Origin: an uncultured virus (IMG/VR IMGVR_UViG_3300025467_000014)
Taxonomy: Duplodnaviria; Heunggongvirae; Uroviricota; Caudoviricetes
Strand: one strand, 5' to 3'
DNA: 64,000 bases
Virus record (IMG/VR): IMGVR_UViG_3300025467_000014
Coordinates: 1-64,000 of that record
Positions 22,721 through 50,300 of this stretch are shown in pieces (the first letter of the stretch is position 1; the number at the start of each line of letters is the position of its first letter). The position numbers were made by a program, and so were the translations under genes. The notes beneath the pieces were generated by a model. The model worked only from the letters and a program-made list of their open reading frames with translations, did no database searches and was not told the origin of the DNA.

Positions 22721-23171
22721 GGGGGCGTACTGGTTTCGACTTATACTCGAAGTTTGTATGGCACGTAGTGGTTAATCAGTTGGCCACTTTAAAAAGCTGA
22801 TTAAAAACATAAATGCAGAAGATAACTCTGACGCTATCCTTGCGGAAGCATTGTATTGTCTCGAGAACGCTGACGAAATCCTCGCCAGCTTTGAAGAGCC
22901 AGCACTCCTAGCTGCCTAAGGAACCAAAAGATAATCCTATTAAAGCTTTTGGAAATAAAAATAGGTTTAGAAGGTCTTGTGATTCTTAGAAAATTGAGTG
23001 CAAGCGGTGGTATGTGGTCGTTAATCACACATACAGGTAGGACTCTAAACATGGATAGGTCGCTAGTGCCTGGTTACCTTTAGTCAACCAAAGTACGAAA
23101 GCTAGCTAAGCGTGTAGAAGTATAAATAGAAAAGTATAAACACAGGGGTTCGACTCCCCTCGCCTCCACCA
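22721..23171 (+). ncRNA. ssrA: tmRNA (transfer-messenger RNA)
   Basis: 5' GGGGGCGTACTGGTTTCGAC; 3' T-arm GGGGTTCGACTCCCC and CGCCTCC-A-CCA with G3.U; tag frame 22815-22919 ending LAA-TAA. Confidence 0.95.
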
Positions 23172-23277: not shown

Positions 23278-23640
23278 ATGGCTTCTACACGTTTAAGCGC
23301 AGCTCGCGATATAGCACATGGTAAATTTCCAGCAACAGGAGTGAAACGATCTCCTAAATGGGCTGCTGTACGCAAGGAACATCTTAAGAATAATCCAAAA
23401 TGTGCAATTTGTGAAGGTACAGAAAAACTTAATGTACATCATATTAAACCATTTCATTTACATCCGGAATTAGAACTCGATCCAAGTAACTTTATTACTC
23501 TTTGTGAAAGTGCAAGTTATGGTATTATCTGTCATATTCTTGTTGGTCATTTAGGTGATTATAAAAACATAAATCCAAATTCTGTAGAAGATGCTAAAAT
23601 TTGGAACGCTAAATTAAAAGAAGATCATTTTCAGAAATAG
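23278..23640 (+). CDS. HNH endonuclease
   Basis: CAIC...VHHIKPF...SNFITLC...CH motifs. Confidence 0.85.
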   Translation: MASTRLSAARDIAHGKFPATGVKRSPKWAAVRKEHLKNNPKCAICEGTEKLNVHHIKPFHLHPELELDPSNFITLCESASYGIICHILVGHLGDYKNINPNSVEDAKIWNAKLKEDHFQK

Positions 23641-26000: not shown

Positions 26001-26075
26001 GGAGATGTAGCATAATGGCAATGCACTTCTTTGCCAAAGAAGATACTGCCGGTTCGAGCCCGGTCATCTCCTCCA
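26001..26075 (+). tRNA. trnG: tRNA-Gly(GCC)
   Basis: CTTCT-TTGCCAA-AGAAG anticodon arm; U73-CCA. Confidence 0.92.
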
Positions 26076-27833: not shown

Positions 27834-27841
27834 CGGATAAA

Positions 27842-27881
27842 GGTTTATTGCACACATAAATAATAACGGATGCAATAAACC
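27842..27881 (+). promoter_or_regulatory. hairpin enclosing a late promoter upstream of the HNH gene
   Basis: Perfect 11-bp inverted repeat GGTTTATTGCA/TGCAATAAACC with TAAATA in the loop, 3 nt before the ATG. Confidence 0.7.
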
Positions 27882-27884
27882 ACT

Positions 27885-28397
27885 ATGAAATCTAAACTAG
27901 AACCTTTTAAAGAAGATGTAATAAAAATGTATGTTGATGAAAAATTAACATGCAAACAAATAGGATTAAAATTTAAAATAAGACCAGGGCCTGTTTCAAG
28001 TTTTCTTATTAAAAATAATGTAAAGCTACGTAATGCTGGTCAACAGAAAGGTAGACCCGGTACGAATAAAGGAAAGAAATTTGTAGAACGTACATTGGCA
28101 TACAATACACAACTTATTGAAAGCGGTGAATATAAAAAACTTCACGAAGCAGGTATAAGGAGCCGTATACGTAAATATCTAATTAACAAATATGGACATA
28201 AATGTCAAATATGTGGTCTGTCTGAATGGAGAGGACATGCTATACCTCTTGTATGCGATCACATAGACGGATCTGCTAAAAATTGTGAATTAGAGAATTT
28301 TAGAGTGATTTGTAATAATTGCGACTCTATACTACCTACATATAAAGGTAAAAATAGAGGCAGAGGTAGAAAACTTAACGGGAGCGTGACTGAGTGA
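27885..28397 (+). CDS. HNH (putative homing) endonuclease
   Basis: CQICG..EW...PL..DHIDG...N...NFRVICNNCDS; N-terminal HTH-like region. Confidence 0.88.
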   Translation: MKSKLEPFKEDVIKMYVDEKLTCKQIGLKFKIRPGPVSSFLIKNNVKLRNAGQQKGRPGTNKGKKFVERTLAYNTQLIESGEYKKLHEAGIRSRIRKYLINKYGHKCQICGLSEWRGHAIPLVCDHIDGSAKNCELENFRVICNNCDSILPTYKGKNRGRGRKLNGSVTE

Positions 28398-28470
28398 TTT
28401 AAAGTGATCGATTACTAATCGATTGAACCCTAATAAGGTTCCGTGGGTTTGAATCCCACCGCTCCTTCCA
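28380..28470 (+). tRNA. trnS: tRNA with ACT anticodon (nominally Ser), class II
   Basis: GGGAGCG/CGCTCCT acceptor, ATCGA-TTACTAA-TCGAT anticodon arm, long variable arm, CCA encoded. Confidence 0.82.
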
Positions 28471-28515
28471 TTTTTTTTCTTGACTTAATACTTAAATACT
28501 CTAATATAAATGAAT

Positions 28516-28606
28516 GGACAGGTGGCAGAGTTGGTCTATTGCATCTGACTTGAAATCAGAAGTACCCGAAAGGGTACCGTGGGTTCGAATCCTACCCTGT
28601 CCGCCA
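28516..28606 (+). tRNA. trnS: tRNA-Ser(TGA)
   Basis: TCTGA-CTTGAAA-TCAGA anticodon arm; long variable arm; G73-CCA. Confidence 0.93.
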
Positions 28607-28614
28607 ATTTTAAC

Positions 28615-28692
28615 GCGTAGATGGCTGAGTGGTCAAAGGCAATCCTCTGCAAAAGGATAAAATCGCCAGTTCAAATCTGGCTCTACGCTCCA
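28615..28692 (+). tRNA. trnC: tRNA-Cys(GCA)
   Basis: ATCCT-CTGCAAA-AGGAT anticodon arm; U73-CCA. Confidence 0.92.
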
Positions 28693-28703
28693 TAAATACT
28701 ATT

Positions 28704-28877
28704 ATGACATTTAAAGAATACGTGACAGAAAAGAATATAGATAAACCACGTCATCCCGGTATTCTCAAACGCCAGGTTAAGGGCAAATTAACCTGTTCAA
28801 AGGCTCGTAAATTAGAAGGTAAGGGCGGTCTAACCGCTAAAGCAGCTCGTCGCTATCAAAATTATCACTGCCAATAA
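28704..28877 (+). CDS. small basic protein (MTFKEYVTEK...)
   Basis: ATG after TAAATA; the longer tracked ORF would begin inside tRNA-Cys. Confidence 0.65.
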   Translation: MTFKEYVTEKNIDKPRHPGILKRQVKGKLTCSKARKLEGKGGLTAKAARRYQNYHCQ

Positions 28878-33141: not shown

Positions 33142-33723
33142 ATGACTAACTTAAACTGCGCATCCGTTCTTATTTTAAACCGAAATTGGCAAGCAATTCA
33201 TGTAAAATCAGCGGCAGAGGCTCTTTCTATGATGTATGTAGGTAACGCTACAGGCTTAGATATCGCCGGCTTTGATAATATGGTACCATACAAGTGGGAG
33301 AATTGGGTCTCTCTACCTTTTGATGAAAAGGCTGAATATGTCAGCACCATACGTGGTCAAATAAAGGTCCCCAAGGTTATTGTGTTATGTGAATATGATA
33401 AAGTTCCAAAGAGAAGACCGAAATTTTCATCTAAAGCTATTTGGAATAGAGATGAAGGTACCTGTCAATATACTGGTAAGAAGCTAACACCGAATGAAGC
33501 AAATATCGATCATGTTTTACCAAGAAGTAAGGGAGGTAGGACAACATGGACAAATTGTGTTCTCTCCCACAAAGAAGTAAATCATAAGAAAGGTAATAGA
33601 ACACCTGAAGAAGCTGGACTCAAACTCATCCGTCAACCATATGAGCCTAGAGCAGTTCCAACAATGCTTTATATTAACAATCACCAGAATATTCCTGAAT
33701 GGGATATCTTTTTAAAGCTATGA
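33142..33723 (+). CDS. HNH endonuclease (McrA-like HNH family)
   Basis: VLILN, RD..TCQYTG, IDHVLPRSKGG.TTWTNCV and N..KGNRTPEEAG motifs. Confidence 0.9.
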   Translation: MTNLNCASVLILNRNWQAIHVKSAAEALSMMYVGNATGLDIAGFDNMVPYKWENWVSLPFDEKAEYVSTIRGQIKVPKVIVLCEYDKVPKRRPKFSSKAIWNRDEGTCQYTGKKLTPNEANIDHVLPRSKGGRTTWTNCVLSHKEVNHKKGNRTPEEAGLKLIRQPYEPRAVPTMLYINNHQNIPEWDIFLKL

Positions 33724-49274: not shown

Positions 49275-49367
49275 CCGCCTATAGTTTAATGGTAGAACCC
49301 TTGTTTTATACACAAGAAGCTGGGAGACTCTGGCGCAGTGCAGGTTCGAATCCTGCTAGGCGGACCA
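49275..49367 (+). tRNA. trnI: tRNA-Ile(TAT) with long variable arm
   Basis: CCGCCTA/TAGGCGG acceptor, CTTGT-TTTATAC-ACAAG anticodon arm, 23-nt variable region, A73-CCA. Confidence 0.85.
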
Positions 49368-49766: not shown

Positions 49767-49842
49767 GCTCCAGTAGTCCAACGGCAGAGACAAGGGACTT
49801 AAAATCCCTCAAGTATCGGTTCGAATCCGATCTGGAGTACCA
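49767..49842 (+). tRNA. trnL: tRNA-Leu(TAA) with short variable loop
   Basis: AGGGA-CTTAAAA-TCCCT anticodon arm; 5-nt variable loop; A73-CCA. Confidence 0.88.
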
Positions 49843-50225: not shown

Positions 50226-50300
50226 GCGTCGTTCGTTCAACGGATAGGACAGGGCTCTTCTAAAGCCTTAATGGTAGTTCGATTCTACCACGACGCACCA
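50226..50300 (+). tRNA. trnR: tRNA-Arg(TCT)
   Basis: GGGCT-CTTCTAA-AGCCT anticodon arm; CCA encoded. Confidence 0.92.

Follow-up and report, generated by a model that had tools for sequence, protein, structure and literature searches.

The window, a stretch of 64,000 nt that forms the start of a 74,880-nt virus record, carries a tRNA-Ser gene with the anticodon ACT at positions 28380..28470 (+ strand). Sequence comparisons support the conclusion that its A34 is real and inherited and that the Ser(ACT) gene is under selection. The reading that we favour, and consider fairly probable, is that of a phage tRNA-Ser which is charged by SerRS, keeps an unmodified A34, reads AGU only and, in a clade of freshwater T4-like phages, replaces the GCU gene.

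The gene is 91 nt long and was identified from the sequence, by ARAGORN, by Rfam (RF00005, 50.6 bits with a cut-off of 29) and by folding as a class II tRNA with a 7/5 cloverleaf and an encoded CCA. All stems are paired (acceptor 7 bp, D 3 bp, anticodon 5 bp, variable 5 bp and T 5 bp). The anticodon (28414..28416, + strand; A34 C35 U36, from the sequence and ARAGORN) is located in the loop TTACTAA, and the long variable arm with its 5-bp stem (28425..28441, +) is the main SerRS identity element according to the available text of PMC9976931. The initial annotation, which had reported the ACT anticodon, intact stems, a long variable arm and CCA, was therefore confirmed by the sequence, ARAGORN and Rfam. 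The minimum-energy fold is the cloverleaf with two additional pairs in the anticodon loop (z −3.43; none of 200 shuffles was equally good), and the 7/5 arrangement differs from the 8/4 or 9/3 acceptor/T fold described for allo-tRNAs and tRNA-Sec-like tRNAs (PMC5389517). The D-loop positions U16-G18-A19 (28395..28397, +; A19 at 28397) also form the TGA stop codon of an upstream HNH ORF, and U56 (28450) of the T-loop TTTGAAT (28448..28454, +) pairs with A19. The G1.U72 wobble and the discriminator U73 (28466..28467, +; U73 at 28467), which had also been pointed out before, are clade traits present in 6/9 and 7/9 of the distinct syntenic ACT tRNAs, respectively.

The record G001 (198,847 nt, 91% complete) is identical, with the same 17 tRNAs and no Ser(GCT). 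Because it carries genes for the major head protein, portal, sheath, T4-type polymerase and late sigma factor, the virus is regarded as a T4-like myovirus; the identity of its major capsid protein to those of cultured phages is at most about 32%. The full record also contains GTP cyclohydrolase and QueC/QueD/QueE-like genes (L407 6169-7158, L409 13663-14418, L410 12081-17141), which suggests 7-deazaguanine synthesis, a large sugar-modification cluster (L410-L411) and two RNA-ligase-like genes (L410 7695-10271, L412 2097-2942) with a possible function in tRNA repair. A phage tmRNA (window 22721-23171, Rfam 114.8 bits) was missed by ARAGORN; its tag is long and acidic, with 34 residues and homologues at 79-89% in relatives, and a comparison with four PVC tags gave no match.

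To follow the anticodon in relatives, as the initial annotation had advised, 39 syntenic loci were gathered via a neighbouring 57-aa ORF. Ser(ACT) was present in 14 of them (9 distinct bodies, including that of the window) and Ser(GCT) in 3, while in 22 neither was found within the flank; the sister phages L146 and L153/154 carry tRNA-Ser(GCU). All nine distinct ACT bodies have A34. The 7-nt loop YTACTAA is invariant across this synteny-picked set and the stems turn over, which fits a decoding role. The covariation of nine ACT and two GCT bodies, analysed on the structure taken from the window tRNA's own fold, showed 98.3% of cells paired and two-sided changes in 21 of 26 pairs, including 5/5 pairs of the variable-arm stem; none of 500 shuffles reached this result, and slid controls gave 4-8 pairs.

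With a general pattern, at least 117 loci were found in viruses, every one of them called as Ser(ACT), with 97 distinct sequences among the matches listed. An anticodon-blind pattern returned 24 ACT and 96 GCT tRNAs among the 120 viral AGY-box tRNA-Ser matches listed, which stand in arbitrary order. The description of the ACT anticodon as very rare thus holds for cultured bacteria, but not for phages. In GTDB at least 120 loci were found, 119 of those listed being called Ser(ACT); judged by eye from the titles, about 72 of the listed ACT loci belong to Patescibacteria and some to Planctomycetota and Verrucomicrobiota. No ACT was found in 300 further genomes from the phylum of genome G007. Among ten cultured phage records checked, Ser(ACT) is present in five: Salmonella phage Munch, Klebsiella phage fENko-Kae01, Erwinia phage Hallingskeid, Xanthomonas phage XaC1 and Rhizobium phage RHph_TM2_3B.

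The distribution of the two anticodons differs between viruses and cells. In a set of 39 ACT and 39 GCT viral records (13 of each at least 90% complete), no ACT record has GCT and no GCT record has ACT, and the five cultured phage genomes likewise carry ACT without GCT. In contrast, 51 Ser(GCT) genes lie within the 120 GTDB ACT loci listed, and GCT was found elsewhere in 22 of 30 draft genomes chosen for having no GCT nearby. The retention of GCT alongside ACT in cells is expected if A34 cannot read AGC. Exclusion in viruses together with co-occurrence in cells fits a tRNA that reads only AGU and depends on a GCU partner; in the case of the phage this would be the GCU tRNA of the host. An engineered ACU tRNA was reported without inosine and read AGU at 9.4% and AGG at 0.36%, with AGC and AGA below detection (PMC11066159, available text), figures that were obtained in E. 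coli with a Tyr body of archaeal origin and may not match the host of this phage. These values speak against the large risk of misreading Arg codons that had been proposed for this tRNA; a low-level Ser leak at AGG is possible.

The proposed course of events is as follows. The tRNA would be transcribed together with the upstream HNH gene and then cut out, and the host SerRS would charge it via the long variable arm with the anticodon unread, as known identity rules predict. As ACU appears from E. coli data not to be a TadA substrate, A34 would stay unmodified and decode AGU through Watson-Crick pairing. AGC would be left to the host GCU tRNA and AGA to the phage's own reader of that codon, a tRNA-Arg(TCT) with A20 (50226..50300, +; ARAGORN), whereas the gain would be an added supply for AGU, the most used Ser codon. 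In this scheme the A19:U56 pair would be an inherited elbow variant and G1.U72/U73 clade traits, none of which A34 would require.

AGT is the commonest Ser codon of this 35% GC genome (609 occurrences; AGC, 128), and it reaches 38.9 per 1000 codons in 18 Ser/Thr/Asn/Gly-rich ORFs compared with 15.4 in 37 others. It is preferred over AGC in 39/39 ACT viruses and in 27/39 GCT viruses (p=1.8e-4), and its frequency per 1000 codons is 21 and 15, respectively (p=7e-4); at GC<=0.42 the values are 21.3 (ACT, n=38) and 17.3 (GCT, n=26; p=0.024). These samples are phylogenetically non-independent, and one GCT region has only 146 codons. However, the AGT:AGC ratio of the window (0.83) equals the overall U-ending bias of the genome, and the excess of ACT viruses in AGT:AGC is gone after correction for U bias (residual p=0.33). 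GC-matched ratios are 0.727 and 0.721 (p=0.72), and the 300-nt flanks show no difference in GC (p=0.18). The earlier suggestion that the tRNA is tuned to AGT codons therefore stands as far as the preference and the AGT-dense rich ORFs are concerned, but not for an excess beyond the U bias. As the ratio is no higher than this bias predicts and GCT serves many viruses of equal AT content well, codon demand would seem to permit ACT without being sufficient for it.

With regard to charging, Ser identity does not depend on the anticodon according to the available text of PMC9976931, which lists G34 as a determinant for Cys, Ile, Tyr, His, Asp, Asn and Phe, and also for Thr. From the bacterial Ser identity set, Ser(ACT) has the large variable arm, G2-C71, R4-Y69, C11-G24 and G30-C40, but U72 and U73 in place of C72 and G73. 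PMC9976931 attributes moderate importance to G73 in E. coli tRNA-Ser, and this base is present in 87 of the 97 distinct viral ACT tRNAs among the matches listed. The host SerRS probably tolerates U73 and G1.U72, since both are clade traits and U73 also occurs in the Ser(TGA) genes of relatives (L129, L130/137, L149, L600); the partner isoacceptor of the window, tRNA-Ser(TGA) (28516..28606, +; ARAGORN), has the canonical G1-C72 and G73. In a census of 817 distinct tRNAs from 460 viral loci, chosen non-randomly around Ser tRNAs or relatives, the seven boxes whose synthetases read G34 contained no A34 and 137 distinct G34 tRNAs; the other viral A34 tRNAs were Gly(ACC) (4), Thr(AGT) (3), Leu(AAG) (1) and Ser(AGA) (1). 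That SerRS ignores the anticodon may explain why AGY alone among the split boxes allows A34. A simple rule is suggested, namely that A34 occurs in tRNAs whose synthetase pays no attention to base 34 and which escape editing by TadA. The window copy, moreover, indicates that a class II tRNA can apparently do without G19:C56, C72 and G73 all at once and still work.

The elbow of the tRNA had been read as a compensatory replacement of G19:C56 by A19:U56, and this reading was upheld, as the double change recurs in relatives with compensated stem differences. A targeted scan found A19:U56 in 49 viral loci, with 14 distinct tRNA-Ser (4 ACT and 10 GCT); the four ACT tRNAs form one sub-lineage in which stem differences are compensated. 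Among 790 distinct viral tRNAs, GG is absent from the D-loop in 9/10 with U56 and in 3/777 with C56. A19:U56 also occurs in unrelated viral Gln, Lys, Thr, Ile, Val and Gly tRNAs (L069, L027, L160, L371, L377, L415, L558), and an apparent U19:A56 in two more viral tRNAs (L289, L149) represents natural covariation of the elbow pair. On these sequence patterns, A19:U56 is a true compensated pair, unlinked to A34, since further viral tRNAs, Ser(GCT) among them, have it too. The impression that it was private to the window tRNA (1 of the 97 distinct viral ACT tRNAs listed) was overturned by the targeted scan and L600. According to the available text of PMC4797305, a protein-only RNase P was nearly unaffected by the double 19/56 change.

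Among the alternatives, the least improbable is defence escape, which the initial annotation had raised as evasion of anticodon nucleases and which we regard as unlikely. Here G34A would protect the AGY tRNA of the phage from a nuclease or toxin of the host that recognises the GCU loop, and U73, G1.U72 and A19:U56 may, by extension, have the same purpose at the acceptor end and at the elbow. It agrees with the replacement of GCT by ACT in viruses, with the weakness of the codon effect once corrected, with the two RNA-ligase-like genes of the phage and with the anticodon-loop escape proposed for phage tRNAs in the available text of PMC10264068. However, the same source gives Ser(gct) as a non-targeted Ser tRNA in mycobacteria, cellular Patescibacteria have ACT alongside GCT, an AGU-only tRNA could not rescue AGC after the loss of GCU, and the literature search turned up no GCU-specific nuclease. 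The broader idea that A34, found in about one fifth of the viral AGY tRNA-Ser matches listed, is the footprint of an undescribed host defence destroying tRNA-Ser(GCU) is likewise doubtful. If it were true, ACU would represent the first A34 decoder of a split box found in nature, perhaps with a slight Ser leak at the rare AGG codons, and the elbow change A19:U56, which keeps recurring, would mark a second escape, from endonucleases that read the T-loop.

A further alternative starts from the neighbouring gene. The ORF directly upstream (27885..28397, +; 170 aa, PHROG 10822, E 7.7e-20), overlooked in the initial annotation, encodes a free-standing HNH endonuclease; it overlaps the first 18 nt of Ser(ACT) and ends within the D-loop, and a stable hairpin (27842..27881, +; z −4.55, 0/200 shuffles) lies directly ahead of its start codon. 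An endonuclease ORF among tRNA genes that is patchy in relatives (a related contig has 1,024 different bases across 27837-28727) resembles SegB, and the gene may be a putative free-standing homing endonuclease of tRNA clusters. Two controls have been proposed for T4 segB, a hairpin ahead of the gene and the loss of its stop codon when the tRNA is processed (PMC2330249, available text), and by analogy the same two elements would control the HNH gene; the non-stop HNH mRNA left after tRNA processing could be rescued by the tmRNA. Both systems have a free-standing endonuclease gene amid tRNA genes, an upstream hairpin and a stop codon that tRNA processing would remove, but SegB is a GIY-YIG enzyme, whereas the window gene is of the HNH type. 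Two further HNH ORFs are present in the window (23278-23640 and 33142-33723), the first between tRNA-Ala and tRNA-Thr. In L607 (1056-1126) a relative of the window HNH likewise runs 18 nt into the 5' end of a tRNA, and in L601-603 such a relative lies 107 nt ahead of Ser(TGA).

A34 could be near-neutral in AT-rich genomes and Ser(ACT) a tolerated passenger spread by homing of the adjacent HNH, or else a serine donor outside the ribosome, an explanation that we hold to be quite improbable. The HNH abuts or overlaps Ser(ACT) in three distinct lineages, and its 79% orthologue in L131/L599 overlaps Ser(ACT) by 24 nt. SegB spreads flanking tRNA genes (PMC2330249), and ANN tRNAs are of little cost in E. 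coli (bioRxiv 10.64898/2026.05.15.725136), as far as the available text of these sources goes. On the other hand, among the syntenic non-identical loci only L131 has the HNH, most ACT relatives being without it, and the constancy of the YTACTAA loop while the stems turn over fits decoding. SegB reads GGTTCRANTCC (PMC2330249), the motif that C56U breaks, so that a tie between the elbow and homing is a possible lead only; if the HNH cut needs GGTTCGAATCC, C56U would be tied to homing immunity. That A19:U56 is needed for HNH immunity is unsupported, as L131 has the 79% orthologue together with G19:C56 and two of the four A19:U56 ACT tRNAs show no such HNH upstream, although the flank covered in one of these two cases measures only about 600 nt. 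Selection of G19A to stop the HNH ORF was rejected on the evidence of L600, in which the same A19:U56 tRNA is present but the HNH ORF already stops 33 nt ahead of it.

It is very unlikely that a host TadA deaminates A34 to inosine and makes the tRNA a reader of AGU and AGC with some AGA leak. The loop departs from a TadA substrate at position 36 only, and the replacement of GCT by ACT in viruses would agree with such a reader. Against this, the engineered ACU tRNA lacked inosine (PMC11066159) and, unlike in cells with TadA substrates, which have an ACG loop and lose the G34 isoacceptor, GCT is kept in 22/30 of the ACT-bearing genomes. In contrast, Phe-AAA, the one split-box ANN tRNA checked in the available text of bioRxiv 10.64898/2026.05.15.725136, was inferred to be partly deaminated. 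The phage deaminase (33699-34154) is a dCMP deaminase (PHROG, E 8e-39) and not TadA, the TadA model giving 13.7 bits with a cut-off of 150, and no phage TadA or synthetase was found among 39 + 123 of the longer ORFs compared with PHROGs and 8 with NCBIfam.

A non-standard decoder, as had been considered in the initial annotation, finds no support in the codon alignments and appears highly improbable, whether AGA/AGG were decoded as Ser in the manner of invertebrate mitochondria or the U73 tRNA were charged with Cys or Arg. In two ribonucleotide reductase genes, compared with 71 and 65 homologous DNAs, AGA/AGG fall in Arg columns in 13/13 cases and AGT/AGC in Ser columns in 7/7, which rules out recoding of AGR to Ser; AGA/AGG at conserved Ser positions, the mark of AGN=Ser systems, are absent here. 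Across the homologues AGA lies in Arg columns in 568/585 cases and in no Ser column. By eye, most AGR codons face R or K in PDB homologues; two AGA codons (RNRa 356 and RNRb 192) are opposite Ser in some of the distant PDB chains, and both belong to Arg columns at the codon level. U73 is a Cys determinant, C35/U36 are Arg determinants, and the engineered tRNA did read AGG to a small extent (PMC11066159). However, the phage has its own Arg(TCT), and Ser(ACT) has U20 instead of A20 and lacks G34 and A36 for Cys; from the tRNA-Cys set (U73, G34-C35-A36, C3-G70) it matches only in U73 and C35, besides G2-C71.

An assembly error or a decaying pseudogene has a negligible probability: the Rfam score is the second-lowest of the 16 window tRNAs listed and positions 19, 56, 72 and 73 are off consensus, but conservation, covariation and matching contigs refute both. 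Contigs from 4/4 metagenome runs cover 28414 with no other letter, in line with the check in reads that had been proposed, although one run is possibly the source, contigs hide rare variants, and all 24 runs listed are 2017 freshwater metagenomes, possibly of one campaign. Two IMG/VR contigs are identical to the window across 3,018 nt, and these together with the syntenic relatives rule out an assembly error or a private mutation; seven of the nine matches in the IMG/VR search were chance, non-tRNA matches.

Other unusual tRNAs were observed in the window and its relatives. The tRNA-Ile(TAT) (window 49275-49367) has a long class II-like variable arm, as it does in G002, G003, G006, L136, L150 and L161; the UAU anticodon is listed as missing in bacteria in the available text of PMC8007984. 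Where the window has Gly(GCC) (26001-26075), the loci L129 (1242), L132 (4056; also L133-135), L138 (752) and L558 have tRNA-Gly(ACC), with four distinct sequences; Gly-ACC is called universally absent in the available text of bioRxiv 10.64898/2026.05.15.725136. The tRNA-Leu(TAA) (window 49767-49842) is 76 nt long with a short variable arm, and short-armed Leu(TAG/CAA/TAA/AAG) are also found in G003 and G006. A tRNA-Thr(TGT) of 81-83 nt with an enlarged variable region occurs in L131 (3175-3893 region), L132 and L144.

The near-absence of unmodified A34 tRNAs is regarded as an open question (PMC11066159, bioRxiv 10.64898/2026.05.15.725136). The available text of PMC8007984 describes A34 as 'universally missing' from the Ser-Arg box, and that of the preprint gives split-box ANN tRNAs as sporadic in GtRNAdb and always beside GNN. 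A literature search with partial coverage found no paper on a natural phage Ser(ACU), and preprint supplements may list Ser-ACU genomes; GenBank MN988523.1 is already annotated with 'tRNA-Ser(act)'. As cultured phages such as Rhizobium phage RHph_TM2_3B carry Ser(ACT), its modification, decoding and fitness effects are testable now.

Compared with known systems, the window tRNA is closest in form to tRNA-Ser(GCU), with which it shares class II structure, the long variable arm, G2-C71, R4-Y69, C11-G24, G30-C40, the loop YTNCTAA and the codon box, but it differs in A34 for G34, with predicted reading of AGU only, and in G1.U72, U73 and A19:U56. Like tRNA-Arg(ACG/ICG), which is served by TadA, it has an encoded A34 and a loop with one base different; however, ACU was not deaminated in E. 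coli, and Arg(GCG) is normally lost in ICG systems, whereas Ser(GCT) is kept in ACT cells. The natural A34 tRNAs described in the available texts of PMC11066159, PMC8007984 and bioRxiv 10.64898/2026.05.15.725136, namely Thr(AGU) of Mycoplasma and Leu(AAG)/Thr(AGU) of Leuconostocaceae and other Firmicutes, are similar in having A34 for G34, AT-rich genomes and U-ending codons, but they serve four-codon boxes and the window tRNA the Ser/Arg split box. Engineered ACU tRNAs, built on the M. jannaschii Tyr body (PMC11066159) or as the E. coli Ser-tRNA-ACU of the preprint, which bettered growth parameters (bioRxiv 10.64898/2026.05.15.725136), share the anticodon and indicate the likely decoding and a low cost. 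They are laboratory constructs, whereas Ser(ACT) occurs naturally, is conserved and is common among both phages and Patescibacteria, and thus provides a counter-example to the missing split-box A34.
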